IMG/VR virus record: IMGVR_UViG_3300048818_000143 | Location: 1 to 64,000 of that record | Length of the DNA stretch: 64,000 nt | From: a virus | Reading direction: 5' to 3' (one strand) | The notes under the pieces: generated by a model | Database searches by the model: none | What the model was told of the DNA's origin: nothing | Seen by the model: only the letters and a program-made list of their open reading frames with translations | Shown here: positions 1,789 through 63,152 of the stretch, in pieces | Position numbering within the stretch: the stretch's first letter is position 1 | Layout: the number at the start of each line of letters is the position of its first letter | Program-made: the position numbers and the translations under genes

Positions 1789-3696
1789 TCATGGCCATGG
1801 CCAATGTGACAGGGGCGTTGGCGTGCTGGTCGGGGTCGGGACCACCGGCGTCGGAGTAGGAGTCGGCGTCGGTGTAATTGTTGGCGTTGGAATCGCTGAC
1901 GTAGAAGTTGGGGTTGCCGTCGGTGTTGGTGTCGATGTCGGAGTCGGAGTTGCGGTTGATGTCGGCGTAGGCGTCGCGGTCGGGGTCGGTGTTACGGATG
2001 GCGTCGAATCATTCAGCGGCGCTATTTCCCAAGGATTTATCACTTTCGCCGTGCCGCCTGTTACGGATTGAATCTGCGCCCCCGTGGCATCGTACACCCT
2101 CAATTCGCTGGCGGCCTGCATCGTTACGTAAATATGTCCCTGCCAATCTACCACCACGCCTTCGGGGTCGGTCGTGGATCCCGTATTGATGGTTAGGTCA
2201 GGCGCGACGTTGCAGGTCCCGTGGGTACAGTCGCCATTGTTATATTTCAACACTTTTTGGGTGTTACCGTTGGCGACGTAAATGTTGCCGCTATTGTCCA
2301 ATGCCACTTGAGTCGGTTGCGTAAGCACCGAACCGCCATCGTTGATAATCCAGTTGATGACGCCGGCCATCGTCATCGACAATATCTTCGGCACCGTATA
2401 TCCCGTGACATAAAGGACATTGTTTTTATCAACGGCGATTCCCCCGCATGTCATTCCAATGCTGAAACTGGCATTGGGCACGATATTACCGCCCGCTACT
2501 AGTTGAGCGGCGGTGAACTCCAAAACCTCTTTGCCTGTCGTCACGTCCTGATTGCACGCCCAGAGATTTCCCGCCTGATCAAACGTCAGCCCGATTACTA
2601 CCGAAAGCAGCGTGTTGCCACCTGCAATGGTTACGAGCGGCGATACCGAACCGGAAGCATTGGAGGCATACTTGTATATTGAATCGTTAAGGTACGAGCC
2701 AATCCAGATATTTCCTGATGCGTCGAGCGCGACGCCACCAGCATCGCCGTACGCGGTATCGACAAAACCTTGCGATGGAGCCACATTGCCGGTGGCAGAA
2801 TAAGGCCACATGGACGCCGTGTTGCTCGCTGTGCGATGAATGCCGACCCAGATATTAGTGGCGTTTCCGAACCCTGCGGTTGGCACTGAGAAGGGTGTTG
2901 CCGTTGGCGTCGGGGTTGCGGTCGCCGTAGCAGTAGGAGTTGGCGTGGGAGTAGGCGTTGCGGTTGGAGTGGGCGTTGGGAGCGGTGGTGCGATCGCGAC
3001 TTGCACGCTGGAATATTGAATCGCGCCGCCCGTGAACATAGTCTGACTGCCTGTCGCTGAGCCTGAACTCAGCAGGAAATCCGTAATTGTTCCCGACGAA
3101 TTAGTATTCGGTCCTTGCACAGCAATCGTGCCTTCTGAGGGTGTTGAGAACGTCGCCGACGCCTGATCTGCCACATATATCATTAACAGCATATCGGCTG
3201 CTGTCGTAGGCACGATGCTGTTGCTGGTCTGTGTACTCGAATTCCCTGTGTGCTGGGTACTGAACACGAGAGTCGGCGTCAGGTCTTCGTTCTTATAGGC
3301 GCTAGTCTGATAGGAACCTGTCGGAGACCCTGTCCCAAAAGTAAACGAATGCGAACCGGCACAGTCACTAGACGCACATACATGCCAGAAAACCTCATGC
3401 CGACGGGTCGCACCGGCATACGTTTGATTGAATCCGGCGGTCCATCCGCTCGGCGGCGTGATCGTTCCCGTATTCGAGATGTTCATGTTCACAAAGACGA
3501 TGTCATTGTCGGTGACGCCGCTTCCGAGAGTTACGCTCACTGAGGTAGCGCCACTAATCTCGGCACTGGACGTGCCATTCGTCTCACGGGCAACGGACGC
3601 CCACGCGGGCGAGGCCAGCAGGAACAGCGCGAAGCTAGAAAGGATTACAAGTTTCAAGCCGCCACACCGTTCCGTCGAGTTGGAAGTTAGCGTCAA
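1789..3696 (-). CDS. secreted NHL-repeat (beta-propeller) protein with two Pro-Thr linkers
   Basis: 635-aa ORF with a signal-like N-terminus ..LVILSSFALFLLASPAWA/SV. Repeated NHL/YWTD-type signatures: DASGNIWIG, DQAGNLWAC, DKNNVLYVTG, DNSGNIYVAN, DWQGHIYVT. PT linkers are encoded at nt 2893-2988 and 1792-2010. The N-domain is paralogous to that of 3635-8263. Start is uncertain (ATG 3696 or TTG 3657). Confidence 0.7.
   Translation of the reverse strand: MTLTSNSTERCGGLKLVILSSFALFLLASPAWASVARETNGTSSAEISGATSVSVTLGSGVTDNDIVFVNMNISNTGTITPPSGWTAGFNQTYAGATRRHEVFWHVCASSDCAGSHSFTFGTGSPTGSYQTSAYKNEDLTPTLVFSTQHTGNSSTQTSNSIVPTTAADMLLMIYVADQASATFSTPSEGTIAVQGPNTNSSGTITDFLLSSGSATGSQTMFTGGAIQYSSVQVAIAPPLPTPTPTATPTPTPTPTATATATPTPTATPFSVPTAGFGNATNIWVGIHRTASNTASMWPYSATGNVAPSQGFVDTAYGDAGGVALDASGNIWIGSYLNDSIYKYASNASGSVSPLVTIAGGNTLLSVVIGLTFDQAGNLWACNQDVTTGKEVLEFTAAQLVAGGNIVPNASFSIGMTCGGIAVDKNNVLYVTGYTVPKILSMTMAGVINWIINDGGSVLTQPTQVALDNSGNIYVANGNTQKVLKYNNGDCTHGTCNVAPDLTINTGSTTDPEGVVVDWQGHIYVTMQAASELRVYDATGAQIQSVTGGTAKVINPWEIAPLNDSTPSVTPTPTATPTPTSTATPTPTSTPTPTATPTSTSAIPTPTITPTPTPTPTPVVPTPTSTPTPLSHWPWP
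1792..2010 (-). repeat. coding low-complexity Pro-Thr repeat (C-terminal ~73 aa of the NHL protein)
   Basis: The translation is almost pure (P-T)n with S/A/I/V interruptions. Similar PT linkers are encoded at 2893-2988 and 7496-7579. Confidence 0.8.
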
Positions 3697-6600
3697 GATC
3701 CGATGGTGGACTCTGCGTTACCCCCAGCGTGCAGTTAGTTCCCACCCCAACCACTGTGCAGGAACCGTTCTGTGTCGAGAACGGCCCTATCGTACCTGAC
3801 GGCAGCGTGATCGTCCCGCCGCTCGAAGTCTGATGAATGTGCCACGTCATGATTTCGCCGCTTGCGCAGGCGCACGGCAGGGTCATCAGCGTCGGACTCG
3901 CGGTATTGGCGAAGGTCTGAACATCAACCCAAGGAGCGGTAGCCGAATTACAGACTCCGACCGGTGTAGTTCCCGTAAGCGCATGGGTCGCAGGCAAAGA
4001 AGTCCATGCCGCCACTGGCGGAGCGTTCGCGGTGCTGGTAGCGACTGGAACTTGCCCTATGACCGGCGCGACAGCCGGAGCAATAAATGCGTAGGCTCCG
4101 GTCTCAATCTGCAACGTGGTAGCCGCGAGGTTCCCGTTGTAATCGATGTTGAATTTCGTGTTGGTATGCGTGGAGTCCTGAAGCCTGATGAACTGGCCGG
4201 TCGGGGTCGCGAGGGCATACCCATCGAACATATCGATCCCCGCACCGCTCTGGGTGTTCGCCGAGCCGTTGAGCAGGTAGTTGCCAAGCGCGGTTGAACC
4301 TCCCTGTTCAACCCACACCGACCCATTGCAATAGATAGGACAATGCGTCGAGCCGCCGGTCGTACAGGTTGCGCCGTTCGCGCACGTTGCGTTGCAATCG
4401 GTAGCCACACCCTCCTGCGATTCATTCGTGGAGTTGCAGGCAGGGGCGCTGCCGATGACACCTTGGTAGAGAACCGCCATAGGCCCTGAAAAGGACGGAG
4501 GTCTGATGACGGTCGCACCCGCTATCGCCAGCGGCTCTATCCAAAAGGAGCCCGAGGTGACACCGTTGCCGAAAAAGCCTTTATTCGACGCCACACCGCC
4601 GTCGCAATCCACATTAAATGGTGTCGCAAACGAGGGGGTGTAGAGCCGCAGGAACGAGCCTGGGCTGCCGAGGCATTGCCCCGTAACCATCACGTTACCC
4701 GAGGCGAACTGCTCAAGGTCAAGATTCTCGCCATTCACGAACTGGCCCGGTTCGATACCCGCCGGTCCAATCGCAAGGGGAGTTATTTGAGAGCCGTTGT
4801 AAGTGATTTTATTCCCGTTTGTAACCGGCGCATTATTGAAGATGTTGCTTAGGTTGGTGGCGTCTATGTCGCTGTAGAAGATACCCGGCTCGATCACGGT
4901 GTTATTGTATGCCTGATCGTGATTGATCGTGATGCGAGCGCCGCCAAAGCCCGCCGACGCCAACCCACCGCCAATCAAGTGAAAATCGGTATGCGAGCCA
5001 TTGTTGAATAGTATCGAATCGTTATCGAGGTTCAGCCCTACGGTCGCATCGTAGTTGCGCACCACCACCGCATCACCGACAAAGGCGACCGGCGTTCCGT
5101 TACTCACGGCTTCCAAGTAGCTGTTATTTATCGACTCCGACTGCGCACCGCTTATCGCAACCATCATCGCGGTCGGGTCTGTGGCATTAACCATTTCAAC
5201 GTCTAGGCCCTTGATTTGGCCGTTGATCATGCCGTTGAATGCGTCCACACCGATATGTCCGACGCCCGCACAAGTCAGGGTGTCAAAAGTCAGATCGTTG
5301 TCGTACCCACCCGTCCCGTTAGTCGGAGCGTCGAAGTAGAAACAGGTGTGCGTACCCTGAATCGACATCTTACGATGTGTAGCGTTCTGCTCGAATACCG
5401 AGACACCGATGCCGCAGTTGCCCGCGCCTACGTGGTCAGTGTTGAGTCCCGATTGATAAGCCCACCCACCCGAAACACCAGGCGTCGAGTCACCGATCGC
5501 GAGGCATTCCGTAGTCGGCGTTATCGTTCCGCCAGTGCCGGTGCCCATGTCGGAGAACGGACCCATCGGGAAGGTCAGATGCGTCGAGTCAACAACCTTC
5601 GCGAGCACAGTGCGGTTGTAGTTGCCATCTTTGATGGTGCCGAAGCCCGAACCCGCTCCAAGGCCAGTGTTCTGACTGATCCATGTGATATGCGTTGAGT
5701 CCTCGGTGTTGACTATCCAGCCGTTGCCCGCAGGACTGTTGTAGCCACTAGGGGTATTGCCCGCCGAGATGATCTGGTCGCCAGCGAGCAGGCCGTGAGG
5801 AGCAGAGCAAGTTGCGGTGACGATATTGGGCTGCGTGACTGCCGCGGTGGCGAGCACCTGCCCTGTGCCGCCAGTGCATCCGGTGAAGCAGTTGCCCGAG
5901 CCCCCCGTGCAGGCCGCCCCGCTGGTGACGCCAGTGCAATAAATTGGATCGGTCCCGAACGACGCCAAGGTGGCGATGTAGATCGGCATGCTGCTACCGG
6001 TGAGAAAACCAGTCGTAGACGCCACGTTCACGATGGCGCTCGGGAGGCTGGTCGTGAGCGATAGCGTCGTGGATCCCGCCGATTCACTGAGCGCGGTCGG
6101 GGTGCAGGCGTTCGCACCCGCATTTCCATTCACCGTCGTACCGACACCGGCAATGACGATAGGGAGAGCGCCACTCGATACGGGCAGAGGGCTCGCTACC
6201 GTGGCCGTCGTGGTGCGGTCGCCTCCCGTAGAGGCTTGAATCAGCGAGGTGACGTTCACTGACGAGGCGTCGGTTCCGCTGCCGAGGAAGTAGCAGCCCT
6301 CTATGTCGCCGCCTTCCTGGCACGACCCCGGCGTAGCTCCATTCGGTGAGCACCCAAAGCGATTATTGATGCCGTAGGTATTGGTCGAGTAGATGACCGT
6401 CCCTTCGACATCAGATTGGAAGAGCGACGTATTCGCGGGAATGACTCCCGTCCCACCGTTGCAATTATTTAGCTGGCCCGCAGTAGGAGCACCGCCGCAA
6501 AAGATTTTCTGACCTGTACCCGCGAACACGATAGGGATACTCGCGTTGGCTTTGAATCCGGTGCTCAAGATCACCGTCACCGAAAAGTTGGTGCCGCCGA

Positions 6601-8263
6601 GAGTATTCGACCCCGTGGTGGTCGTAACCGCTGGCGCAAAGGGTGTCGTGGTCTCTCCGAAATGAGCGCCCCAATTAGGGCTGACCCAAGAGCCACACTG
6701 GAGTTTACCGTTAGTCGGCCAGTTGGTGTTGGGCACGACATAACAACCGCCCGGCGGTGTCGGAACATCCACCTCCTGTCCCGGAAGTCTCATCGCTGCC
6801 GCTAAATCGAAAGCAGGTTGATCGTTCGTAACGCAATCGCCCTTCGCGCCGAGAGTTACAACATTGATGGCGTTGTTCGAAGGAAGGGACGGCACCCACT
6901 GTGTTCCGTTGAATACCCATGTATCACCAGTGACCGGTGGCGTCGCCGATATCGGGGTTCCTTGAAATCCGACTACGGTACAAAGCCCGGGAACAGCAGT
7001 TGAGCACGAGATATCTCCCGTCAGCGTATAGAACGCGGGATCGAGCGGCCCTTGAATCAGGATCTGTCCCGTAGTTCCCGGATTCACGCCCGGTATCGCT
7101 GTGCCGTTGAAATTGATCGTACTGATGCCGATCCCGCCTAGCGGTGGATTTGTGATGGAGATGCCGCTTGATCCTGGACCTGTTGCCGCAACTCCCGTCA
7201 CCAGCGAGGCCGGCCCATTGTTTGCCGCCACGAGCTGCGAGAGATTCGCGCTAGTCGCATTCGGTATCTGGATGCGCACAGGTTGCCCGCTGCCCACCGT
7301 CAGGAAAACTACGAGTCCTTCCGGTACGTTTGTGGGGTTGGGCAGATTGCCGAAAGCGTCAGTGTTGACGGAGAACTTTCCCGCGGGAGTCAGCGAGCCG
7401 CCTTGATTCTGCAGCGAGTAAGTATCGAATACGACACGCTGGCTAATAGCCGGGCTGCCGTTTATTTTGAGCACGTTGCCGCCGACGTTGCAGACCGGAT
7501 TCGGGACTGGCGTCGGCGTTGCTGTCACCGTAGGAGTAGAGGTCGTTGTCGGGGTCGGAGTGACAGTCGGCGTCGGGCCGGTCGCCAAGAGCTCGATCTG
7601 CTCCGCGGCCCAATTCACGTTGCCCGAGGTGCCTGCATTGATATTGTTGGTATAAGTCCCCGAAAAGGGAATCGGCACGTATTCCTGCGCGACACCCGCA
7701 TTCGGCGTCGCCTGAGTATTCGTCACGTTGAACGCGGTCGTGAAAGTCATTGTGAGCGCCTGGTTGGTCCCCGCGCTCCATCCGAAATCCACCAGCAGCA
7801 TCGAGTTCGCGCCGGTTGTCGTGATTGGCGGCGCCGTCAAAGTATTACCCGCCGTTCCAAAATCGTTGGTCCCCGCGACTGCGCCCACTCCTACCGCGCC
7901 GGCGTATGTCGTGACGCCGCAAGCCTCGCCCGCATGACCTCCCGTAAAGGTGTAACTCGCAGGCTCGCTGCTCGCGACTCGATAGCAGAGTATCGATTGC
8001 ACGTTGGCGCTGGTTGATTGATCCTGGCGGACGAAGCTCCATCCCGTGGGACAATTCTGTGTCGGCGAACTGATGCTTTGGTCGACGTAGTGCCAGACCA
8101 TCAGGTTGCCGTTGGTGGTTCCAGTCGGCACGTTGCACGAGATCGGGGATGACGCCGCTGTGTTGTGCGCCGCGGCTACAAACGTGATCGCGGCATCGGC
8201 GCGCGCCGCGAAAAGTAGCAAGAGCGCGGCTATTAGGCTTGAGATTCTTCTTTTGTTTCGCAT
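3635..8263 (-). CDS. giant secreted beta-helix protein, tailspike/depolymerase-like (pectate-lyase superfamily motif)
   Basis: Uninterrupted 4.6-kb ORF; start taken at MRNKRRISSLIAALLLLFAARADA/AITF (Sec-like signal). PT linker at nt 7496-7579. The motif INVVTLGAKGDCVTNDQPAFDLA (nt ~6800-6868) matches the characteristic N-terminus of Pectate_lyase_3-type right-handed beta-helix domains of phage tailspikes. Gly/Thr/Asn-rich throughout. Confidence 0.75.
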   Translation of the reverse strand: MRNKRRISSLIAALLLLFAARADAAITFVAAAHNTAASSPISCNVPTGTTNGNLMVWHYVDQSISSPTQNCPTGWSFVRQDQSTSANVQSILCYRVASSEPASYTFTGGHAGEACGVTTYAGAVGVGAVAGTNDFGTAGNTLTAPPITTTGANSMLLVDFGWSAGTNQALTMTFTTAFNVTNTQATPNAGVAQEYVPIPFSGTYTNNINAGTSGNVNWAAEQIELLATGPTPTVTPTPTTTSTPTVTATPTPVPNPVCNVGGNVLKINGSPAISQRVVFDTYSLQNQGGSLTPAGKFSVNTDAFGNLPNPTNVPEGLVVFLTVGSGQPVRIQIPNATSANLSQLVAANNGPASLVTGVAATGPGSSGISITNPPLGGIGISTINFNGTAIPGVNPGTTGQILIQGPLDPAFYTLTGDISCSTAVPGLCTVVGFQGTPISATPPVTGDTWVFNGTQWVPSLPSNNAINVVTLGAKGDCVTNDQPAFDLAAAMRLPGQEVDVPTPPGGCYVVPNTNWPTNGKLQCGSWVSPNWGAHFGETTTPFAPAVTTTTGSNTLGGTNFSVTVILSTGFKANASIPIVFAGTGQKIFCGGAPTAGQLNNCNGGTGVIPANTSLFQSDVEGTVIYSTNTYGINNRFGCSPNGATPGSCQEGGDIEGCYFLGSGTDASSVNVTSLIQASTGGDRTTTATVASPLPVSSGALPIVIAGVGTTVNGNAGANACTPTALSESAGSTTLSLTTSLPSAIVNVASTTGFLTGSSMPIYIATLASFGTDPIYCTGVTSGAACTGGSGNCFTGCTGGTGQVLATAAVTQPNIVTATCSAPHGLLAGDQIISAGNTPSGYNSPAGNGWIVNTEDSTHITWISQNTGLGAGSGFGTIKDGNYNRTVLAKVVDSTHLTFPMGPFSDMGTGTGGTITPTTECLAIGDSTPGVSGGWAYQSGLNTDHVGAGNCGIGVSVFEQNATHRKMSIQGTHTCFYFDAPTNGTGGYDNDLTFDTLTCAGVGHIGVDAFNGMINGQIKGLDVEMVNATDPTAMMVAISGAQSESINNSYLEAVSNGTPVAFVGDAVVVRNYDATVGLNLDNDSILFNNGSHTDFHLIGGGLASAGFGGARITINHDQAYNNTVIEPGIFYSDIDATNLSNIFNNAPVTNGNKITYNGSQITPLAIGPAGIEPGQFVNGENLDLEQFASGNVMVTGQCLGSPGSFLRLYTPSFATPFNVDCDGGVASNKGFFGNGVTSGSFWIEPLAIAGATVIRPPSFSGPMAVLYQGVIGSAPACNSTNESQEGVATDCNATCANGATCTTGGSTHCPIYCNGSVWVEQGGSTALGNYLLNGSANTQSGAGIDMFDGYALATPTGQFIRLQDSTHTNTKFNIDYNGNLAATTLQIETGAYAFIAPAVAPVIGQVPVATSTANAPPVAAWTSLPATHALTGTTPVGVCNSATAPWVDVQTFANTASPTLMTLPCACASGEIMTWHIHQTSSGGTITLPSGTIGPFSTQNGSCTVVGVGTNCTLGVTQSPPSDLDANFQLDGTVWRLETCNPF

Positions 8264-8940
8264 GCCACCATCCGCCGCACATTCTCGCATAAGCCGTTTA
8301 TCAGCGCTAACTCGTCAGGAACATCGAATATCCGGTGGTCAACTACCAGGTGACTCTTCTTGGAGCCTATAGCCAGTGCCATCGGCGAATATCCTGCGCA
8401 CCCACCTAGACACATCTGCGGCCATTCCTTCAGGTGGGAGACGTTCGAAAGCAGTACTTGAGGCGGCGGCACGTCGGGGTTAATCGCCCGGGTCAGAAGT
8501 CCGTACGCGATCTCCGGAGGCAGCTTGAGAATCTGGCGCATCGTCGCGAAGCGTCCCATGAGTCTCAGTGTCGATTCTCCATAGTCGAGGGTAGCTATCA
8601 GCGTCTGCGCGTCGTCTTTGTCCCGGGCGGTAACGGCGATCGTCGTGCCTATCGATTCGGTGAGGACTCCGTGAATTAAGCAGCGATGGAGTTGTGGATT
8701 TTCATGGATCGTTTCGAGCAGCGCTTTTGCGTAGAGCGCTGTCATCTTGAAAGTATGTAACGGACTGAGGTGCCATCCCGGCTCGAAATAACCAGCGGGC
8801 GTGTCGAAGTAAGTTCCAATCGCCAGCGGCTGCGGGTTCTGCTCGATGAAAAGCCGCCGCATAGGATCCGGCTCCATCGCCGTCCAGCCCTCAGAAACGC
8901 AGGCCGGGATATGAATGGCAATCTCAGATTTGGACGGCAT
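8233..8940 (-). CDS. CAT / 2-oxoacid-dehydrogenase-E2-like acyltransferase (putative, 235 aa)
   Basis: Start at MPSKSEIAIHIPAC. Its size, and the near-C-terminal motif LVVDHRIFDVPDE followed by a helix (LALINGLCENV), resemble the DHRxxDG / HHxxxDG catalytic region of the CoA-dependent acyltransferase fold. Upstream elements (TALYAKALLETIHENPQL, VLLSNVSHL) line up with the E2 pattern. Confidence 0.45.
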   Translation of the reverse strand: MPSKSEIAIHIPACVSEGWTAMEPDPMRRLFIEQNPQPLAIGTYFDTPAGYFEPGWHLSPLHTFKMTALYAKALLETIHENPQLHRCLIHGVLTESIGTTIAVTARDKDDAQTLIATLDYGESTLRLMGRFATMRQILKLPPEIAYGLLTRAINPDVPPPQVLLSNVSHLKEWPQMCLGGCAGYSPMALAIGSKKSHLVVDHRIFDVPDELALINGLCENVRRMVACETKEESQA

Positions 8941-9574
8941 TTTTCGCCAGCTTTTCCACATAGCGATTCTGGGCGGCACTTAGGCACGTTCGACAGGTCT
9001 CAAAGGGCTTCCGCCATTTCTGCTTCATCAATTTGATATTATCTGGCGTCCGCGCATGCCCGCACCGAAAGGTTATACCATCTCGTCTTCGGCACGGTCT
9101 GCCCAACCGGGCCGTCATGCACGGCTTGCATCGTCGAACAAACGCCTCGGGATTTTTCCTACCTTTCCGGAATACTTTGTACGTAATCGTATTTTCGGCG
9201 GTCATTAGGTGCCCTCGCTTACACCGAACGCGATTCGCCCCGAGTAACTGGGTGCGCTGCTTCCAAATAGTTAGCCCCTTTCGAATTTGAGCTTTGCGCC
9301 TCAAACTCATCAAAACGTATGCGGTCATCATTACTCCAGCCGCTCGATGTCCCGATACGGTCCAACAGAATTGGTCTTGGTGCCGTGGATTCCTAGAACG
9401 CTTAAATCCTATAGATCCGCCAAACAATCGTTGAAGCCTTTCTAGAGGTTCGCGCTGGACTTGAACCGCACTGCAACGCAGATTCTTGGCCCAGTCCCCA
9501 AAGGTTCCTTCACCTTCAAGAAATCCTGCCGCCCAAAACAATTCCTTCAGGTCAAAGGCGCAGGCCGGGATATG
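8914..9574 (-). mobile_element. putative homing-endonuclease gene insertion bounded by a 16-nt direct repeat
   Basis: The identical 16-mer cgcaggccgggatatg occurs at 8898-8913 and 9559-9574 (+ strand). Both copies encode HIPAC at codons 9-13 of the two consecutive genes. The interval carries only the LAGLIDADG ORF. Confidence 0.4.
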
Positions 9575-9598
9575 TAGCTTTATTTCATTTGCTGGCAT
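8924..9598 (-). CDS. LAGLIDADG-type homing endonuclease with C-terminal Cys-rich Zn-finger repeats
   Basis: Start at MPANEIKLHIPAC. It contains the LAGLIDADG-like motif WAAGFLEGEGTF and downstream LERLQRLFGGSI. The C-terminal half has repeated CKRGH...N...C..C / CGHARTPDN...CRTC elements typical of phage homing-endonuclease DNA-binding modules. Visibly lower GC than flanking genes. Confidence 0.6.
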   Translation of the reverse strand: MPANEIKLHIPACAFDLKELFWAAGFLEGEGTFGDWAKNLRCSAVQVQREPLERLQRLFGGSIGFKRSRNPRHQDQFCWTVSGHRAAGVMMTAYVLMSLRRKAQIRKGLTIWKQRTQLLGANRVRCKRGHLMTAENTITYKVFRKGRKNPEAFVRRCKPCMTARLGRPCRRRDGITFRCGHARTPDNIKLMKQKWRKPFETCRTCLSAAQNRYVEKLAKNAVQI

Positions 9599-9843
9599 AC
9601 GAACTCCGCAATGCTCCGCGGCGTCGGACTGTTCCCGTAGATCGAATTGAACAGAAGCCTTCCCCAAATCTCCTCTTCGGCCGGCACACCGTACTTTTCT
9701 TCGATCGCTATGATGATCCCCGCGAAGTCCACCGAGTCCATCATCAGGTCTTCGAAGACCTTGGCGTCTACTCCCGCTTTGCGGCCCGCGACCTCCGTGA
9801 TGAGGCCGGCCATCGCTTCTGGTGTCGGTTTATTCAAAGGCAT
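9580..9843 (-). CDS. acyl/peptidyl carrier protein-like (ACP / DltC-like, 87 aa)
   Basis: Start at MPLNKPT. The core FEDLMMDSVDFAGIIIAIEEKYGVPAEEE aligns with the ACP helix II region (E. coli AcpP: [30 protein letters not shown]), including the Ser that carries phosphopantetheine. The tail (..W....TP.SIAEFV) is reminiscent of DltC. Confidence 0.6.
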   Translation of the reverse strand: MPLNKPTPEAMAGLITEVAGRKAGVDAKVFEDLMMDSVDFAGIIIAIEEKYGVPAEEEIWGRLLFNSIYGNSPTPRSIAEFVCQQMK

Positions 9844-10168
9844 CTTTGATCGCTTTAGTGAGAAGCCCTGGGTACTTTTCAAGTAAGAAGCGTTCGAACT
9901 TGGCTTGCGCGTCGATCACTTCCTGCATCTTCTCAATCAGTTTCTTGGTCTGGTCCGTCGCTACGATCACCCTGCCTGTGTTCGCGAGAATCGCCTGCTT
10001 TCCGTCCTTGAGCGCATCAACCAAAGAGGGCATTGCCGCCACAAGGGCGCTCGCTGAGCGACGTTCTTCCTCCGGGTTGAGTCCTAAGCAGTTCTGACCC
10101 GGCGGGAGCCCTACGGGCTCGTGCTGCTCGGAGATGTCAACTGCTCCGTTTCCTGTGTGCGTAACCAA
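9830..10168 (-). CDS. hypothetical protein (112 aa)
   Basis: ORF in the operon with normal amino-acid composition and a helical C-terminal half. No motif recognised. Confidence 0.5.
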   Translation of the reverse strand: MVTHTGNGAVDISEQHEPVGLPPGQNCLGLNPEEERRSASALVAAMPSLVDALKDGKQAILANTGRVIVATDQTKKLIEKMQEVIDAQAKFERFLLEKYPGLLTKAIKDAFE

Positions 10169-10611
10169 AGGGCCTCCGAATAATACTTGGGGTCGTCTAC
10201 TTCGATGCGGTAGAAAATCCCCGGGTGCTTACTGAATACTTGGAGCGAGTTGTTAAATCGCCCCTTGAGTCTCCCGTTGCAAAACATCTGAATCGGATCG
10301 GGCGCGTTCCACGTCACAGTCGCCACATCCGCACCGTCGGGCTTGATAGTCGCCTTGTCGAGCGTGAGTTTGAGCGCCGTCTTCGCTTTGATGCGCTTTC
10401 CATCTTCGACGTAGTGCTGATGGCCGGCCTGGCGTTCGATCTTCGCGTATAGCTGTTCGTCCGGGATAGATTCGTTCTGCGGTCCTTTGCGCATCAGGAA
10501 AAGCCGCGCGTCTCCCGCCTTCTCGGGATGCGTGTCCAGCACGGAGTCATCCATCGCGTTGACGGTTCGGATCCGCCCCTCTTTGTCATAGGAGACCCAA
10601 TAGCGTTTCAT
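10111..10611 (-). CDS. hypothetical protein (166 aa)
   Basis: Start at MKRYWVSYDKEG, immediately after the stop of the upstream fibre-like gene (10608-10610). No motif recognised. Confidence 0.55.
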   Translation of the reverse strand: MKRYWVSYDKEGRIRTVNAMDDSVLDTHPEKAGDARLFLMRKGPQNESIPDEQLYAKIERQAGHQHYVEDGKRIKAKTALKLTLDKATIKPDGADVATVTWNAPDPIQMFCNGRLKGRFNNSLQVFSKHPGIFYRIEVDDPKYYSEALWLRTQETEQLTSPSSTSP

Positions 10612-11900
10612 CTTAAGAACTCCGACACCCATAGTTTGATGGTATTTATCGTCACCGCAAAAGTTCCGTTGGACGATCCGTTGTGGACCTTGATCTGCAA
10701 ACTAAACGTGTTCACCCCCGCCGCTCCAGGCGTAAAAACCGACCCGATGTAAAGGCCACCAAATGCGAACCCCGAAACCGTCGCGATTTGATTGATATTT
10801 GGATTCGGCCCCACCAAGATATTCGCGCTCTGATCTACTATCTGAAAATCGAACTCATCCAGTTGAGCCATCTTCGCGACGACACCGTTTAGCGTGGAAA
10901 ATATCTGGCAAAGATCGGCGGGATTTACGACCGTCAGACTTACCGACAGAATCGTTACCCAGGTGTCGTAACTGCTAGAGCCTCCCGCCCCTATAGTGAC
11001 GGGAACCCCCAGCGACGCCTTGGCCCAATTCGTGATCGCGTTCGCAGCGATCATCGCCGTCGTAATGGAGCCGTTGGGAATTTCCAACTCGAAGACCGTC
11101 TGCAGGTCAAAGCTCGTACCGTCGTAGAGAAAGACCCCGATCGCGCCCGCGGGAATCGTCGCTGGCGTAGCCGGCGGCCCCACCACCGCTCCCGCAGTAG
11201 GAGTCAGCACACCGCCCAACCAGAACTCGACCGGGACCGCGCCTATCCCATTGAGATTGATGGTGTCGCCGCCCTGGCTCGCCTGTGTCCATAGGAAGGC
11301 GTAGAGCTTGCCCTTGACGTAAGCCGTGATCGCCGGCGTCAGCGCTCCGGTGAAAGCCGTTCCGGCACCGCCGTTCGTGATCGTGGTGAAGGTCGGAGCG
11401 TTGCTCTGCGTCTCGACGTTGCCCGGGAGCGCTGCCGCTAGAATTCCGAATTGGACTTCCGATAGACCCGCATCGAGCGCGCCAACATCCATCAAGCAAA
11501 CCACTAGCGTATCGGCGCCGGCGAAAGTCGCGCTCGTGATCGTTCCGTAAACCGTCCCCGCAGTGACCGTCGCCTTGATGCGTCGACCGACTACCGCGAT
11601 CGCGGGATAGTTCGCGCCCGGGTCTACCCAATCGCCGGTGAGAGTGAAGCTGTTCGGGCTCGCATAGACTGGCGGCGCGGGATTCGGCGACTGAGGAGTG
11701 TTGAGATTTAGCCAGCGCTCCCATCCCTTGTTAACGCCCTCTTCCCTGAAAGTCGCGCGCCACACTCTTTGATTCGCCGCGAGGTCCTCCGGCGAACCCT
11801 GATTCATGTAGTCGGTTCCGGTTATGGGGCGATTGCTGTCCGCTCCGAACAGATCGTTCTGCCATTCTGTGATAATCGGATCAGCTACAGGATTCGGCAT
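10608..11900 (-). CDS. tail fibre-like structural protein (430 aa)
   Basis: Start at MPNPVADPIITEWQNDLF, directly after the stop of the 1512-aa gene. Gly/Thr/Ala-rich beta-type sequence in a position typical of fibres. Call rests on context only. Confidence 0.5.
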   Translation of the reverse strand: MPNPVADPIITEWQNDLFGADSNRPITGTDYMNQGSPEDLAANQRVWRATFREEGVNKGWERWLNLNTPQSPNPAPPVYASPNSFTLTGDWVDPGANYPAIAVVGRRIKATVTAGTVYGTITSATFAGADTLVVCLMDVGALDAGLSEVQFGILAAALPGNVETQSNAPTFTTITNGGAGTAFTGALTPAITAYVKGKLYAFLWTQASQGGDTINLNGIGAVPVEFWLGGVLTPTAGAVVGPPATPATIPAGAIGVFLYDGTSFDLQTVFELEIPNGSITTAMIAANAITNWAKASLGVPVTIGAGGSSSYDTWVTILSVSLTVVNPADLCQIFSTLNGVVAKMAQLDEFDFQIVDQSANILVGPNPNINQIATVSGFAFGGLYIGSVFTPGAAGVNTFSLQIKVHNGSSNGTFAVTINTIKLWVSEFLR

Positions 11901-11901
11901 C

Positions 11902-14900
11902 TTAGGTCGCTCCCGCCGCTTCGCGCTCTTCTTTCTTCTTGCCGAGCAAAATATCACGCAGCATCGGCCCTAATGTCAGTTTGTCCTCGGGACGCATATT
12001 GGGCCAAGGGGAAGGACCATCCTTGGGATTTAAGCGCTCCAATAAAACTTTGCGCGCGGTTTTCATGTCGCCTTCGTCTTCATGTGACTCAGCCATCTTA
12101 TACGCCTTGGCTACTTCTACCAAAGGAATCCGGTGAAGCGCCGCTTCGAGCGGTGGCAATTTGGACTGCTTCCACTCATTCGCTATGTCGTTAGGTGTCA
12201 GACCTTTGGCGAGCGCGGCCTTCATATCGGGCATCGCCTTGCTCTGACCACTGCGCACTTGGCGCATCTGCTGCCGGATCTGCATCATCGTTTGCTGGCG
12301 CTGTAGCGCTTGGGGACTTTGCGGCTGAGTTCGGATTTGCTGGTCCTCAAGCTGGTCTACGTAATTCTGCATCGGCGTCTGTCTAAGAGTCCTCGGTGCC
12401 GGCGTCAGCCCCATGACACCCACGGCCGTCTGTTTCAGCGCGCCACCGATTCCGCCTGAGCCTCCAGCTTGTTGCTGCTGCTCTTGGATATTCTTGATGG
12501 CGAACGGCACGCCGCCCACATCGGCTAGGTGCTTCAGTATCTTCGTGGCCTGAGTCGCTTTCGTATCCGCGTGCTGAAAATAGATCGGCTTGCCGAAGTA
12601 ATCGGCGTTGCGCAAAATCTCGTAACCCGCTACCAGCGGCCAATTAAGTTTAGAGGCCGCCACTTCCATCAGCGCGCGCCCCGGTCCTAGCACGTCATTG
12701 GGATCCTGCTTGCGTTCTTTGCCTACGAACGAAAGAATATCGCGCGCCAGATATTCCGGGGGACTGACCCTGATGTAATTGCCCTTCGAATCTTTCTGGC
12801 CTGTCGGCCACGTATAAATCTCGGGAATGCTCTTGGGCCATTCTCCTGTGACTAACTTGTTGATAATTGCGCCCTGAAGTCCCGCGCGCAGAATCTTTCC
12901 GCTCGCGTACTGAAGTGCCAATCTCGATTGCATGTCAAGCGCTTGGCCGGTCGCGAGTTGATAGCCACCTCGCCCTATGCCCCCGAACAATCGCAACGTC
13001 CCGATGTTCCAGCCCGGATAAGCGATGATATTTCCGAGAATGTCCTTGAATTTATTCGTGGTGTGCAGGTTGTCGCGCGCGATCTGGCCCATGACGTTAT
13101 CGAGATGCTTGCGCGCCGCTTGCGCCACTCCCCTGCGTTGAACGTAGGTCAGTTCCTCGCCGCCATTCTTCTCTATCGCGGCGCCGAGCTCCCGATTGTA
13201 GACTCGTTCGAACGCGCCAAGCTTCATGGGAGTAACGATCTTTCGCATCGTCGCTCCGAGCACGTTCTTCATGATCTTACCCGGGAGCCCCATCTTCTCG
13301 CCGAATGCGTCAGTGAGGCTCTGGGTCAAGATCGAATCGCCGAAGTCGAACGACCCTCCACCCATGATGGCGTCTTTGACTACGGGGTCGCCGAACAATC
13401 CCTTTTGTCCCGCCTGCTCGATCTCTCTGCCGCGATTCCAGATTTTGTAACCTTCGGGAACCGTCAGCCAGGTCCTGGGCAATCGACTGAGCGCGCCGGC
13501 CGCGCCCTTGATATCTCCCTCCGCAAGTCGACCGAGACCTTCAGCCATCGCGCCGCCGCCTTCGATATCGGCCAGCGAGTTCGCTTCGAGCATGATGTGG
13601 AAAGTCGAAAGCTCCTGCCGCAGCGCATTGCCCATGGCTCCGATGCTTCGAAAGAGTCCCTGCTTGAATCCCGGTGCCGTGTAATTGTTGATGATGCGCG
13701 ACGCTTCTTCCGGCGCCACATACGCACCTCGGGGAATATGGCCCTTGTACTCGGGCGCGTACTGTCGGACCTGCGCGATTCGATCGTCGATCGGCGCGTA
13801 GCCTTTGGGCATCTGCTCGCCTTCTTTCAGAAACCGCGTCAGCCCAGCCTCCTGCAGGCCCCGGAAAATCTTCTGGCCCGTCACGTAACGCCACTGGTTC
13901 TGCAGACCAGCAAGTATCATGTCGGCCGGGTTGTCGTACCGCGGCGTCAATCCTTTCCCGATCGCATCCGAGATCGAAGAGTAATAGCGCTGCTTCGTGA
14001 AGCCCGTCGATCCTTGGAGCGATTTGCCGGTCGCCTGCTGCATCTCGCTGAATACTTTCTGGACTTTCTCCGGGTCGTCGGCGTAGAGATGCGGCAGGTA
14101 ATTCTCGATGTAGCCTTGCTCGCCGTTTCGAAGCTTGGCGATCTCTTCCCAGCTTTTCTCCAGTCCGTCGCGCGCAGCTTGGAGCGCCGGCCGAATCTCG
14201 GGCGGCAGCACGTCGTAATTTCCTTGCTCGAGCTGCGAATAGATATTCCAGCGCTGCGAGGGTTCGACGCCTTTCATGTAATCTTTAAAGGGTTCGAGCG
14301 CGAGGCGTGCGGATCCTACGCGCGCGCGCAACTCTGCCGCCTGCTCTTCCTGGATTGCACTCGCTCGTTCGGCGAACGGTCCCATCGTCTCGGGCGCGAA
14401 TACCTGCTTGAGCCAAGTCACCGGCCTCGACGCTTCGAGTTTGGTCGATACCGCGCGCGCCAGCGATTGGGCTTTCTGCGCCGCTTGGAGCGGCACGATA
14501 CCTCCCGACAGCGTAGTGCCCGGCTCTCCTCCGAAAAGGCCGCCTTGAGGCGTTTCCGGCTCAGCCTGCCCTATCTCTATGCCTGCCCGCGCCGCGTCGG
14601 TCTTAACCGCTTCAGGAAGTTTCGCCCGCGCCGTTTCATAAATCGAATTCTTTTCGTTGGGCTTTTCCGCGAGGTCGTACGCGAGCTGCTTCAAGACGTT
14701 ATTCGTCTCGGACCCGCTCTGATATACGAACCGCGGCATCAGATCGGCGAGCTGGCGCGCTTCCGTCGCTCGCTTCTGCATCTCGGGCGCGTCGATCTTC
14801 GTCTCGCCCGCGCTCTCCAACATCCCCTTGCCTTTGGCTGCCCGGCTCATTCCCCTCGCCGTATCGGTGAGCGTGTCGCGCACCTCGCCCAGAATCTTCA

Positions 14901-19113: not shown

Positions 19114-19640
19114 AGGAGTTCCTTCCTATAATGAAGCTGGCTCAGTTTCCAGCCGCCGCGATCCAGCCCGAGATTTCTTTGACGCCTTATCCAGCCCATG
19201 CGCCCTGAGATATGTTCGATTTGAATGCACCCGCGGTCGAGCGCCAGCCCGTCAATAAGCGGCTCGACGCGCTCGAGCAGCCCCGCTTTTTCGCTGTAGC
19301 CGACCCAGATAAAGAACGTCAGCGGCGCTTGCAGAAACTCGTCGAAGGGATAGGAACTCAGCACGAACCCATCGATCGCGCCGTCCTCATCCATCACCCA
19401 ATGGAGCTCGACCGTGTTCTGGCTCGCGAGGCCCTTGATGATCGCCATCCGTATTTGTTCCGGTATCCAGGTTGCATAGGAGCGAGTCAGGCCGTTGCGC
19501 TTCTGAGCTACCAGCGCTTTCTTCTTGACGATCTCGAGCTTCGATCGCAGCCACGGCCAATGCGCGCGCAAGCCCTCGCCGTCACAACGCTTGAGAATCG
19601 GCAGCTTGACTTCTTGCGTCTGTGTATGACCGTTCTGCAT
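19110..19640 (-). CDS. hypothetical protein (176 aa), possibly acyltransferase-like
   Basis: Start at MQNGHT forms an ATGA overlap with the stop of the upstream membrane-protein gene. Soluble. No firm motif, and a GNAT-like impression only. Confidence 0.5.
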   Translation of the reverse strand: MQNGHTQTQEVKLPILKRCDGEGLRAHWPWLRSKLEIVKKKALVAQKRNGLTRSYATWIPEQIRMAIIKGLASQNTVELHWVMDEDGAIDGFVLSSYPFDEFLQAPLTFFIWVGYSEKAGLLERVEPLIDGLALDRGCIQIEHISGRMGWIRRQRNLGLDRGGWKLSQLHYRKELL

Positions 19641-20863
19641 CACGCCCATCCTAACCCTCGAATCTCCATCGTGAAAGCGACGACTAGGAAAATCGACGCG
19701 ACTATCAGTACTTTGGCAAACTGATCGATAGGTGTCTTAGCGATGAGAGCTACGAAAAACGGGAAGCTCTGAATCCAGTAGCGCGCGCCGAATTGCTCGA
19801 CTCCATTGCTCCAGACCAGCATGCACGCGCCCATCCCGAGGACGATCGCTGACCAAAGTAGGACCATCTCCACGTTCCAGAATTTTGCGCGCAGGGCCAA
19901 AAGCAGCGCTGGACTGGTAGTGAGCAGCGATTGCCCGATCGCCTGCGGCCGGATGAAGGGAACCTGCCAAGTGTAGGCTGGCCCCAGAAAGAGCGCCGTG
20001 TAGATGTTGAGCGGTAGGTAGTGAAGGCTAAAAGGCCCCCACGGGAATCTCTTGCCACCCGCTATATCTTGTGCGTACCAGATCCACATCGTCGGGTCGG
20101 TGAGACCCCCGAACCGCGCCTCGTTGAGAATCGCGTAGATTACCACCCCTAGCGCTACCACCAAAAGATAGTCGACCAAACCTCGATGCTTCCATAGGAG
20201 CCACGCCGCATAGACCGGAAGCACCAGCACGAGGTCGTTGCGCGCGAAGCAAGCGACAACCGCCCAGAGCCCGACATTCAGAGGTCGCGCCTTCCCATAA
20301 AGCTCACTGAGCACCAGGAACGTCGGAATCGTTGAGATTACCGAGCACATCCCCCACGAGGCTCCGTACGTGGCTTCGTAGAAGACTACTGTTCCGAACC
20401 CGAAAAAGAGTGTAAGCCATAGCGCATGGTGATTTTCTTTTGGGTCAGTCTTGCCGTTTGGGCGATTTTCTTCCTCGCCTTCCTGAAGCGAGTTCTCAAC
20501 TGGATGGTCGATACGCTGGCTCATTCGCCAACAAGCCGTCATTGCGAGCGCGCCATAAAAGACCGAAATTAGCGTCTGGTTGTAAAACTTCAGCGCTACG
20601 AAAGGCAGACATAAAAGCGCCGCTAGCGGCGGATGCACCGTGTAAATGAAGCCGCCGATCGTAACGTGCTCCCACGGCTGAAAAGGATTGACGCTCAGAT
20701 GCCCATGGAGCATCGAGTAGGCCAGAACGATATGCTCGTTGTGCTGGCTCGGCGGCCCCATGCAGAGCCAATAGGCGAGTAGCGCCAGCATGAAAATGGC
20801 AGCGGTTTTCAATTTCAGCACGTCCCGCCGGTTAAAAGGCCCGCAGTGAAAATCTCGGTACAC
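19640..20863 (-). CDS. polytopic membrane protein, GT-C-type glycosyltransferase-like (alternatively Wzy/ligase-like)
   Basis: About 400 aa with roughly 9-11 hydrophobic helices. It has an HPPL element after the first loop and a C-terminal GVEQFGARYW element, as in ArnT/PMT-like enzymes. Embedded in the fibre gene block. Alternative GTG start at 20821 (GTGCTGA overlap with the upstream stop). Confidence 0.5.
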   Translation of the reverse strand: MYRDFHCGPFNRRDVLKLKTAAIFMLALLAYWLCMGPPSQHNEHIVLAYSMLHGHLSVNPFQPWEHVTIGGFIYTVHPPLAALLCLPFVALKFYNQTLISVFYGALAMTACWRMSQRIDHPVENSLQEGEEENRPNGKTDPKENHHALWLTLFFGFGTVVFYEATYGASWGMCSVISTIPTFLVLSELYGKARPLNVGLWAVVACFARNDLVLVLPVYAAWLLWKHRGLVDYLLVVALGVVIYAILNEARFGGLTDPTMWIWYAQDIAGGKRFPWGPFSLHYLPLNIYTALFLGPAYTWQVPFIRPQAIGQSLLTTSPALLLALRAKFWNVEMVLLWSAIVLGMGACMLVWSNGVEQFGARYWIQSFPFFVALIAKTPIDQFAKVLIVASIFLVVAFTMEIRGLGWA

Positions 20864-21615
20864 CAGCCGTGCGTGCCATAAACCGTCTTCGTGACCGACG
20901 CCCCGACACTCGATCCGCTCTTAAAACTCGCAGCCTTGACCGACGCCGAGGTGCAGAAGTCGCCCGTAGGTTTGAGTGTTGCCTTTCCGTGCAGGTCAAT
21001 AACATTCTCGTTGTTAGATGCAAACCAAGATGGATCGGTATAGAGGCCCGTGTGCAACATCCCCGCGTTACCGCCGAGTTGCAGCCCTACAGTGATAGGG
21101 CGCCCCCACCCGTTGATTAACAAACCGTAGGTCGTGTTCCACATTCCGTTCAAAGGCTGATCGACGCCGCTGTAATCTTCTACGTCGATTTCGTGCCCGA
21201 CCAGCAACGAAGGTTGCGTCGCGTAGGCATCTGAGATGAGCGCCCAGCAAAGCGCACCGTGCGCGTAACACGCAGACTGAATGAAAGCTCCGAGCGCCGC
21301 TCTTTCGATACCTGGAAAGACTGAAGAGTCGAAGGTTGCCGTCGATACAAATAGGCCGCCTTTCTCATAGCCTGTCGGTGAGTTTGTCGAGTTGATCAGA
21401 TTCTGAATCTCGAATCCCCACTCGTTCCCTAGTCCATTCATCTCAATGAAGAAGCGATTGTGCGCGGAATCCCATGCGGGCGGGTTGAACGGTGCTGCGT
21501 TAGTATCGTTTACCTCTATCCCTGCGGCAGAACCGCTTTGAAGCAGGAACGGTGCGGCCCATCCTATCGAAGGCACCAAGAGCAGCGCGAGGCAGGATAT
21601 GGCGGCGCTTTTCAT
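20815..21615 (-). CDS. secreted Cys-containing protein (266 aa)
   Basis: Start at MKSAAISCLALLLVPSIGWA/AP (Sec-like), 1 nt after the upstream stop. Six cysteines, including a C-terminal ..WCTEIFTAGLLTGGTC. Confidence 0.6.
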   Translation of the reverse strand: MKSAAISCLALLLVPSIGWAAPFLLQSGSAAGIEVNDTNAAPFNPPAWDSAHNRFFIEMNGLGNEWGFEIQNLINSTNSPTGYEKGGLFVSTATFDSSVFPGIERAALGAFIQSACYAHGALCWALISDAYATQPSLLVGHEIDVEDYSGVDQPLNGMWNTTYGLLINGWGRPITVGLQLGGNAGMLHTGLYTDPSWFASNNENVIDLHGKATLKPTGDFCTSASVKAASFKSGSSVGASVTKTVYGTHGWCTEIFTAGLLTGGTC

Positions 21616-21616
21616 C

Positions 21617-22387
21617 TTACATGCATACCCAATTGAATTTATCATTAGCCGCGCTGACGAAATCAATGACACAGGTTGAGGTTCCGCACGCGCCAACACT
21701 CACAGTCTTTGGAGCAATGTTAGCCCCAGCGTCATCGAATACACAAAATGGCGATTGCCCCCAGACGCCAGCCGCCGACCAAGTGATCGTACAGGTCGTA
21801 GCGAGCGCGGTCTGGGTAGTAAGTTGGCCACGATTATTAGTGCTACCTGTTGTGACCGATGAGCCAGCACCGTTGCAACCGGCCGACAGGGTCGGGGCGG
21901 CGCCGCCAGTAGACGAAAAGGTGTTGCCATTGCCGAGCGTCACGTCACCCGCGGCGCTGATGAGTATGCGCTGCGTGTTGTTGGTATCGAAAGTCATCGT
22001 GGCGCTGGCTACTTCATCGAACGCCATGCCACCAGTGGCGTTGGACCCGAAGAAGATATTATCCCCGACTCCGGTACTGTTCAGTTGCATCAGGAAATAG
22101 TGGTTAGCGTCGTTCAGGAACTCGAAGCCAGTCTGCGCTGCGTTTCCGTTGCTGAGATTTTGCGCAAGCAGAAAGGTCACGGAGGAATTGACGTTAGCGG
22201 ACTGTTGTATCGAGCCCGACTGCGCAGGCGCCGCTATCCCAACCCCGATCGAATTACAATTCGGTGTAACGCCGCCCGGACAATTCGCGCTGTTGGTTGC
22301 GATGGCCGCGTCTCCAGCGTGAACTACCTGCCACGCGGAGGCCCCGATCAGCAGACCGGCCATGAGCGCCGCTATAATCCGATTCAT
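21617..22387 (-). CDS. secreted fibre-like protein (256 aa)
   Basis: Signal-like MNRIIAALMAGLLIGASAWQVVHA/GD. Gly/Asn/Thr-rich fibre-like middle (SIGVGIAAPAQSGSI...) and a Cys-rich C-terminal domain. Confidence 0.6.
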   Translation of the reverse strand: MNRIIAALMAGLLIGASAWQVVHAGDAAIATNSANCPGGVTPNCNSIGVGIAAPAQSGSIQQSANVNSSVTFLLAQNLSNGNAAQTGFEFLNDANHYFLMQLNSTGVGDNIFFGSNATGGMAFDEVASATMTFDTNNTQRILISAAGDVTLGNGNTFSSTGGAAPTLSAGCNGAGSSVTTGSTNNRGQLTTQTALATTCTITWSAAGVWGQSPFCVFDDAGANIAPKTVSVGACGTSTCVIDFVSAANDKFNWVCM

Positions 22388-28440: not shown

Positions 28441-28457
28441 TTTTCCTTCACCCGCCC

Positions 28458-63142: not shown

Positions 63143-63152
63143 GAGAGTCTCC

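Follow-up and report, generated by a model that had tools for sequence, protein, structure and literature searches.

We analysed a 64,000-nucleotide (nt) stretch of viral DNA (positions 1 to 64,000 of the IMG/VR record IMGVR_UViG_3300048818_000143), henceforth referred to as the window. It derives from an uncultivated soil phage with a podovirus-like genome. Its late operon encodes, on the minus strand, a predicted acyl carrier protein (ACP) of 87 amino acids (aa) at 9580-9843 and a 235-aa protein at 8233-8940 that is predicted to adopt the coenzyme A (CoA)-dependent acyltransferase fold of chloramphenicol acetyltransferases (CATs) and E2 catalytic cores (the CAT/E2 fold). These two genes belong to a minus-strand chain of overlapping open reading frames (ORFs) comprising, in order, a 112-aa gene, the ACP gene, a homing-endonuclease ORF, the acyltransferase gene and a 1542-aa gene. 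Terminator-like sites between 3000 and 12500 were no commoner than in shuffled sequence and none lay within the ACP/acyltransferase pair, and the two genes therefore look co-transcribed. An earlier note on this DNA had proposed that an ACP/DltC-like carrier protein is paired here with a CAT/E2-like acyltransferase, upstream of a giant spike gene. The positions that it gave were correct, all the genes are on the minus strand and both of the peptide motifs that it quoted are present.

The 87-aa protein is a predicted acyl carrier protein

The 87-aa protein (77 aa if translation begins at an alternative start at 9813) contains FEDLMMDSVDFAGIIIAIEEKYGVPAEEE and matches PHROG 5934, annotated as acyl carrier protein. 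It scores above the gathering score of the Pfam PP-binding model (PF00550; 22.9 bits against 20.8, E = 1e-4). The best 60 matches listed in a comparison of this single sequence to the Protein Data Bank (PDB) were all ACPs. Ser37 (codon at 9733-9735, minus strand), the predicted phosphopantetheine attachment serine of a DSxD motif, aligned with the DSL serine of solved ACPs.

We aligned seven equivalent small ORFs, including that of the window, gathered from related contigs (labelled L001 and so on). D36, S37 and D39 are invariant across these seven divergent family members and a C-terminal ‘TP..IA’ helix is also kept. The profile built from the seven sequences gave 134 PDB matches at E ≤ 1. 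The best of these were ACPs of type II fatty acid synthesis (FAS; best E = 1.8e-9), and the best 60 of the 134 were all ACPs or ACP subunits of larger complexes. Profile positions 1-69 are colinear with residues 1-71 of a 78-aa solved ACP. PP-binding was the top Pfam match for all five relatives tested, with 28.4 bits for L016, 24.7 bits for L018 and sub-threshold scores of 15.7-19.2 bits for three other distant ACPs. The ratio of nonsynonymous to synonymous substitution rates (dN/dS) of the ACP gene is 0.11 relative to L004, which indicates purifying selection.

The best NCBIfam models for the protein are likewise all named ‘acyl carrier protein’, scoring ~25 bits where the cut-offs are ~70. 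The equivalog test for AcpP failed, with 24.7 bits against a cut-off of 70.45 for TIGR00517. Compared with the type II FAS protein AcpP (TIGR00517, PF00550), the phage protein shares the DSxD motif, the length and a full-length colinear alignment. However, it falls far below the equivalog cut-offs, has a longer linker before the last helix and is encoded beside a CAT-fold gene rather than fab genes. Judged by these comparisons, the 87-aa protein is a divergent member of the ACP superfamily that resembles type II FAS carriers and is no copy of a host AcpP. Its Pfam score above threshold, the PDB matches listed, all of them ACPs, and the invariant DSxD serine thus bear out the prediction of a carrier protein. 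As to the double label ‘ACP/DltC-like’, the closest proteins are FAS-type ACPs and neither peptidyl carriers nor DltC.

The 235-aa protein has a predicted CAT/E2 fold

The second protein contains LVVDHRIFDVPDE. Searched singly, it gave no match in Pfam (at E ≤ 1), PHROGs, NCBIfam or the PADLOC defence models. An exhaustive HMMER scan of 1.84 billion representative proteins retrieved only 29 relatives at E ≤ 1e-3, nearly all of them 180-290 aa long. The family motifs are GTTI.VTG, ATWDYGE, LPPPQ..SNV and an invariant DHR. An AlphaFold2 model of the 235-aa protein, computed from 34 sequences, had a predicted local distance difference test (pLDDT) score of 92.1 and a predicted template modelling (pTM) score of 0.89. 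An earlier model from four close sequences (pLDDT 39.7) was discarded. Foldseek searches of the PDB with the retained model gave 135 matches at E ≤ 1e-3 (best 1.3e-9). The best 50 of these 135 are nearly all E2 catalytic domains and chloramphenicol acetyltransferases (E from 1.3e-9 to 1e-7, probability 1.00), and also include a Bacteroides O-acetyltransferase and one generically described entry. The BFVD library of viral structures contained no match to the model at E ≤ 1e-3.

Comparisons at the sequence level also lead to E2. The seven best PDB sequence matches of the family profile are E2 cores, aligned colinearly with DHR placed on the E2 motif DHRxxDG, and 3 of the 29 family members weakly touch the Pfam 2-oxoacid_dh model (PF00198; best E = 0.0026). 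With a two-sequence E2 template, hhalign gave a confident alignment for the DHR region alone, and its global alignment is unreliable. The DHR motif, which includes the predicted catalytic histidine, is formed by D201, H202 and R203 (codons at 8332-8340, minus strand), and D206 occupies the position four residues after the histidine (His+4). Across the 34 family sequences, D201 and R203 are present in all and H202 in 33. Position 206 is Asp in 22 sequences and Asn in 10 (Asp or Asn in 32 of 34), and S165 is kept in 32. The dN/dS of the acyltransferase gene is 0.16-0.26, again indicating purifying selection.

On its modelled fold and its motif, we assign the 235-aa protein to the CAT/E2 superfamily. 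The fold that the earlier note had proposed is supported by the high-scoring model and its matches to E2 cores and CATs, and the DHR..D motif that it had pointed out near the C-terminus proved to be conserved and aligned with that of E2. Because the protein does not reach the PF00198 threshold and has no lipoyl domains, it represents a new family that is neither E2 nor CAT.

We compared the enzyme to both of these known groups. E2 cores (PF00198) provide the best structural matches (3mae, 4n72 and 1eaa, Foldseek E from 1e-9 to 1e-8) as well as the best profile matches. They are alike in the domain of ~230 aa, the DHRxxD/N motif and the concept of a partner with a protein-tethered thiol arm. 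Unlike E2, the phage enzyme has no lipoyl or peripheral-subunit-binding domains, scores below the Pfam threshold and superposes with template modelling (TM) scores of ~0.5-0.6. Its partner is a predicted phosphopantetheinyl ACP instead of a lipoyl domain, and it is encoded in a phage late operon with no E1 or E3 genes. Type A CATs (CAT I and CAT III) are single-domain proteins of 213-219 aa with the same fold (1cla, 3cla and 3u9f, E ~1e-8, TM-scores 0.51-0.59), and resemble the phage enzyme in having a histidine general base with an acidic residue at +4. They differ in that there is no detectable sequence similarity, the phage motif is DHR..D whereas that of CAT is HHAVCDG, and the phage enzymes are partnered by an ACP or, as described below, a reductase. 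Nothing points to an antibiotic substrate.

The two genes co-occur and a sister subfamily has a different partner

Local Hidden Markov Model searches of all the loci retrieved found the ACP in 16. The acyltransferase gene follows it directly in all 16, and in most of them the two genes overlap or abut. These loci represent seven distinct ACPs (the window with L001 and L002; L003-L009; L013; L014; L015; L016 with L017; and L018). Identity to the window protein is only 21-33% for the distant ACPs and 35-40% for their enzymes. The two genes thus do recur together in related genomes.

Clustering divided the acyltransferase family into a group of 21, to which all ACP-linked members belong (subfamily A), a group of 12 (subfamily B) and one outlier. 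Four subfamily-B members could be placed on contigs (L010:5339-6669, L011:5360-6663, L012:2767-4112 and L023:83-1206, coordinates including the partner gene). In all four, the enzyme is translationally coupled to a classical short-chain dehydrogenase/reductase (SDR) of 216-227 aa. The glycine motif and YxxxK of these SDRs are intact, and their resemblance in NCBIfam is to FabG-type 3-oxoacyl reductases, with scores that fall far short of every equivalog cut-off. SDRs of the FabG-like class canonically act on ACP- or CoA-bound 3-oxoacyl groups. Since ACP and a FabG-like reductase are both acyl-thioester components, the partner in subfamily B lends weak support to a role of the shared enzyme in acyl transfer. 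The subfamily-B loci are phage-derived, as they encode tail proteins, a GH108 endolysin and RecT/YqaJ, and the enzyme-SDR pair sits after the fibre block and beside lysis genes.

The family comprises ~29 sequence clusters, found in metagenomes only. We detected no match in tblastn searches of GenBank phages with the acyltransferase, a subfamily-B member and a family ACP, nor in plasmids, nor in IMG/VR viral contigs searched with each subfamily alignment. There was no match in Genome Taxonomy Database (GTDB) genomes either, hence no prophage or host assignment. The enzyme is a divergent and so far phage-only branch of the CAT/E2 superfamily with a dedicated carrier protein. These ~29 orphan protein clusters, unrecognised by Pfam, PHROGs, NCBIfam and BFVD and located here in the host-recognition part of a late operon, thereby gain a name and a fold.

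A homing endonuclease is inserted in the acyltransferase gene

The ORF that separates the pair in the window (8924-9598, minus strand; 224 aa from the ATG at 9598) matches PHROG 5046, ‘HNH endonuclease’ (E = 8.8e-13). Despite the HNH in this name, the N-terminus of the protein carries a LAGLIDADG-like motif (AAGFLEGEGTF). The ORF is part of a 661-nt insert that is bounded by a 16-nt direct repeat, CATATCCCGGCCTGCG, and lies within the first 14 codons of the acyltransferase gene. On the minus strand, the left copy of the repeat is at 9559-9574, right after which the alignment with L001 and L004 diverges, and the right copy is at 8898-8913, where the 5′ end of the acyltransferase gene has been re-created. 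The endonuclease ORF opens with 14 codons (MPANEIKLHIPACA) that in L001 begin the native acyltransferase gene; a second copy of these codons, divergent in sequence (MPSKSEIAIHIPACV), is found in the acyltransferase gene of the window. The stop of the ACP gene in L001 and L002 overlaps the start of a 231-aa acyltransferase homologue beginning MPANEIKLHIPACV. More generally, the endonuclease is absent from L001-L009, and in these contigs the ACP gene overlaps or adjoins the acyltransferase gene.

The window and L001 share 100% nucleotide identity on the left side of the insert (the synonymous divergence, dS, of the ACP gene is 0), whereas on the right side the dS of the acyltransferase gene is 0.37. 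This one-sided pattern looks like that expected of homing in which one flank was co-converted. The endonuclease was inserted and is foreign to the native ACP-acyltransferase pair. It had been described as inserted between the two genes; the insertion is confirmed, and its site is inside the 5′ end of the acyltransferase gene. We also considered an intein or intron and rejected both, as the endonuclease is encoded by a separate ORF that is read in another frame and has a stop of its own, and the duplicated gene start flanks it.

Other homing-type endonuclease genes were observed near the module in relatives: a GIY-YIG-like gene just downstream (L013:2793-3041), an HNH gene upstream (L015:784-1347) and a LAGLIDADG-like ORF (L012:1018-1470). 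The window has two further endonuclease-type ORFs, at 59724-60221 (HNH_3) and 56245-56661 (DUF559).

Loading and priming of the carrier protein

We searched ~57 ORFs of the window against Pfam, and others against PHROGs, and detected no phosphopantetheinyl transferase (PPTase), adenylating ligase, FabD-like transacylase or ketosynthase. A motif search of the six-frame translation found no PPTase, adenylation, FabD or ketosynthase signatures. The earlier observation that no loading enzyme is adjacent therefore extends to the window ORFs covered by these scans. Since no PPTase was found in the window, priming of the ACP would have to depend on a host PPTase. Likewise, since no loader was found there, loading would fall to host enzymes or to the CAT/E2-like protein itself. 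A candidate ligase had been suggested in the ORF at 37665-38990, taken for an ATP-grasp protein. It sits between the portal gene and an ORF at 36102-37370, and we dropped this candidate because the sequence has no match in Pfam, PHROGs or the PDB sequences.

Signal-peptide-like proteins downstream of the pair

The 1542-aa gene (3635-8263, minus strand) starts inside the 3′ end of the acyltransferase gene. The N-terminus of its product, MRNKRRISSLIAALLLLFAARADAA, resembles a signal peptide, and an N-terminal domain of ~230 residues is kept directly downstream of the pair in L001-L006. We found no homologue of the 1542-aa protein in Pfam, PHROGs, PDB sequences or, by tblastn, GenBank phages. Of the earlier description as a secreted beta-helix spike, the signal-peptide-like N-terminus is retained; the beta-helix or tailspike identity found no database match. 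The N-terminal domain and the C-terminal part of a 1056-aa tail protein in L010 have an ‘EPASYT(F/W)T’ motif in common. Directly after the 1542-aa gene, 1789-3696 encodes a 635-aa protein with NHL/beta-propeller repeats (Pfam NHL, E = 1.9e-11) and a signal-peptide-like N-terminus.

In L014, L016/L017 and L022, too, the enzyme gene is followed by genes for signal-peptide-like proteins. We examined 30 proteins of the window (29 from the late region and a lipoprotein at 62753-63166) and found N-termini resembling signal peptides or transmembrane segments in 10, including those encoded at 1244-1804, 1789-3696, 3635-8263, 19640-24024, 24880-25368 and 27931-28470. All three genes downstream of the acyltransferase gene are among the 10, which is unusual for a phage structural module. 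The arrangement hints at a link between the pair and these proteins, but unspecifically, given the frequency of such N-termini of 10 in 30. The 1542-aa protein may be an acceptor or a mere operon neighbour.

Proposed function and alternatives

The function that we consider most likely, at somewhat better than even chances, is a histidine-catalysed acyl transfer to or from the pantetheine thiol of the ACP. E2 exchanges acyl groups between CoA and a thiol on a protein-tethered (lipoyl) swinging arm, and CAT uses the corresponding histidine to acylate a hydroxyl from acyl-CoA. In the phage, a host PPTase would convert the ACP to its holo form at Ser37. The 235-aa enzyme, probably a trimer like CAT and E2 cores, would then move an acyl group between the pantetheine thiol of the ACP and a second substrate, with His202 of the DHR motif as the general base. 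Either direction is conceivable, in that the ACP could be loaded from acyl-CoA or an acyl-ACP could be discharged onto a hydroxyl or amine acceptor. Candidate acceptors would be the signal-peptide proteins encoded downstream, or an envelope glycan or lipid precursor.

Several points weigh against this interpretation. The 235-aa protein itself does not reach any Pfam threshold, and TM-scores of its model to E2 and CAT structures among the best 50 of the 135 matches are only 0.46-0.60. The ‘PPPQ..LSNV’ segment falls on the E2 serine strand in the alignment with 6zzn and on the following ‘PPQ..ILG’ strand in the alignment with 9y6t and by hhalign. These conflicting registers leave unplaced the equivalent of the Ser/Thr that stabilises the tetrahedral intermediate (CAT Ser148, E2p Ser558). 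There is no ACP anywhere in the four subfamily-B loci as retrieved, and a phage-encoded ACP is thus dispensable for the enzyme family. Priming by a host PPTase is an assumption, and the link between the ACP and the active site of the enzyme is drawn from the adjacency of their genes. Finally, an ACP can stand beside an E2-like protein and yet not serve as its substrate. In the tetronate antibiotic clusters of actinomycetes (AbyA3/AbyA4, ChlD2/ChlD3 and Agg4), which have the closest known gene arrangement, a 78-aa ACP is followed by a 251-aa protein with a 2-oxoacid dehydrogenase catalytic domain (PMC3625739). The gene order is the same as in the phage and the sizes are nearly equal, a likeness of arrangement and not of compared sequences. 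The tetronate ACP carries a glyceryl unit and is not the substrate of the E2-like enzyme (PMC3625739, PMC4979870).

The tetronate pair fits a second reading, in which the phage enzyme would be an acyl-CoA-dependent (probably acetyl-CoA-dependent) O- or N-acyltransferase of a small molecule or glycan precursor. The ACP would serve another step, and the SDR of subfamily B would provide or modify the acceptor. Agg4, for which acyltransferase activity is proven, acetylates a free tetronate hydroxyl (PMC4979870), so that an E2-like enzyme beside an ACP is known to act in this way (PMC3625739, PMC4979870). Moreover, the nearest structures of the phage enzyme (E2 cores, CAT and the Bacteroides O-acetyltransferase) use CoA, subfamily B has no phage ACP, and a sugar-modifying island with an epimerase and a family-2 glycosyltransferase is present elsewhere in the window. 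However, the strict translational coupling of ACP and enzyme over seven divergent ACP lineages would be hard to account for, and an orphan ACP without another phage partner would lack an evident role. A FkbH-like glyceryl-ACP synthase, a FabH-like ketosynthase and an alpha/beta-hydrolase always accompany the tetronate pair, whereas we found no domains of this cassette in the neighbouring proteins (112, 173, 449 and 1542 aa, searched against Pfam, PHROG and NCBIfam) or in the ~57 window ORFs scanned. We therefore regard this reading as unlikely, although it holds up best among the alternatives.

It is distinctly unlikely that the ACP is an auxiliary metabolic gene product that boosts or redirects the fatty acid or lipid synthesis of the host. 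The enzyme would then be an acyl-CoA:ACP transacylase that feeds the ACP, with host enzymes using the product. Phage ACPs have previously been reported only as isolated putative auxiliary metabolic genes and have been read as belonging to fatty acid synthesis (PMC11705849, PMC8224337). The proximity of the ACP profile to type II FAS ACPs agrees with such a role, as does the FabG-like partner in subfamily B, which is also of FAS type. Nevertheless, the distance of the ACP from AcpP (~25 against ~70 bits, and 21-33% identity among the phage lineages) makes its use by the host FAS uncertain, and the pair is found in a late operon, flanked by genes for fibre-like and large secreted-type proteins rather than by metabolic genes. 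Unlike the partnerless genes described so far (PMC11705849, PMC8224337), the ACP is here tightly coupled to an acyltransferase of its own. Our literature search found no described pair of a phage ACP and a CAT-fold enzyme. The remark of the earlier note that a carrier-dependent acylation step in a phage tail or spike module has no obvious precedent agrees with this search; the combination of an ACP with an E2-like protein as such does have one, in the tetronate clusters (PMC3625739).

By analogy, the pair could also be imagined as a protein-lipidation system, in which the enzyme would attach a fatty acyl chain from the ACP to the receptor-binding or secreted proteins with signal peptides that are encoded downstream. 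The analogy is with the activation of the toxin HlyA by HlyC, an acyl-ACP-dependent acylation of a large secreted protein. HlyC has a different fold and uses the host ACP, and the likeness is one of function only. In both cases an acyltransferase gene is directly upstream of, and co-transcribed with, a gene for a very large protein with an export signal, and in HlyC/HlyA the acyl donor is ACP-bound; acylation of the phage 1542-aa protein is hypothetical. We consider a lipidation system very unlikely. If true, acylated proteins on the phage surface or exported from the cell would engage the host envelope.

It is highly improbable that one or both proteins have been recruited to a non-catalytic role, such as tail or fibre assembly, in which the CAT-fold trimer would be a scaffold or adaptor and the ACP a small structural subunit. 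The (near-)invariant catalytic histidine motif and ACP serine would be hard to explain in proteins that perform no chemistry, and the partner in subfamily B is itself an enzyme, whose SDR glycine motif and YxxxK are intact. In favour of this reading, the module is always among tail-fibre-type genes, CAT and E2 cores are (by textbook knowledge) obligate trimers like fibres, and the PDB matches of the ACP include many structural ACP subunits from respiratory complex I and mitoribosomes.

If acyl transfer on the ACP thiol is indeed the chemistry of the pair, some phages carry an acyl-transfer unit that is minimal and self-contained. It might yield an acylated protein, either in the virion or exported, or else a modified component of the envelope, and each of these outcomes would represent a new chemistry at the phage-host interface. 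The pair would also be a compact system of two proteins in which to study how a single-lobe CAT fold recognises a carrier protein.

Genomic setting and other features of the window

The window encodes a P22-like portal (38987-41176), a large terminase (41189-42697), a major capsid protein (30766-31986) and an SU10-type adaptor (26898-27728). The portal is at most 29% identical to that of any GenBank phage, and isolated phages are thus only distant relatives. A blastn search of 8000-12000 against GenBank phages found no match.

The 112-aa protein directly upstream of the ACP is encoded at 9830-10168 (minus strand), and the end of its gene shares 14 nt with the start of the ACP gene. L001-L009 have this gene ahead of the ACP too, and coiled-coil-like proteins of 90-140 aa are encoded at this position in L010, L013 and L018. 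Further upstream is a 173-aa protein (10111-10632, minus strand; 166 aa from MKRYW), which follows a 449-aa fibre-like protein. Neither the 112-aa nor the 173-aa protein has a family match in Pfam, PHROGs or NCBIfam. The order in L001-L005 is fibre-like protein, ~170-aa protein, ~112-aa coiled-coil-like protein, ACP and acyltransferase. The order of the block is comparable in L010, L013 and L018, and the genes beyond it are variable.

Additional genes were observed away from the pair. A 286-aa late protein encoded at 24012-24872 has a collagen-like repeat. The lipoprotein ORF at 62753-63166, near the right end of the window, is small and carries a lipoprotein signal (lipobox LSAC); it could encode a spanin or a superinfection-exclusion lipoprotein. 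An opposite-strand island at 32639-36000 (plus strand), between the capsid region and the ORF at 36102-37370, encodes small membrane proteins, an NAD-dependent epimerase/dehydratase (33993-35081) and the family-2 glycosyltransferase (35078-35725), and looks like a glycan-modification moron. In two of the relatives, a gene for an Acb2/Tad1-hairpin protein (an anti-CBASS/Thoeris sponge) is encoded a few kilobases downstream of the module (L001:18532-18744 and L002:17045-17356).

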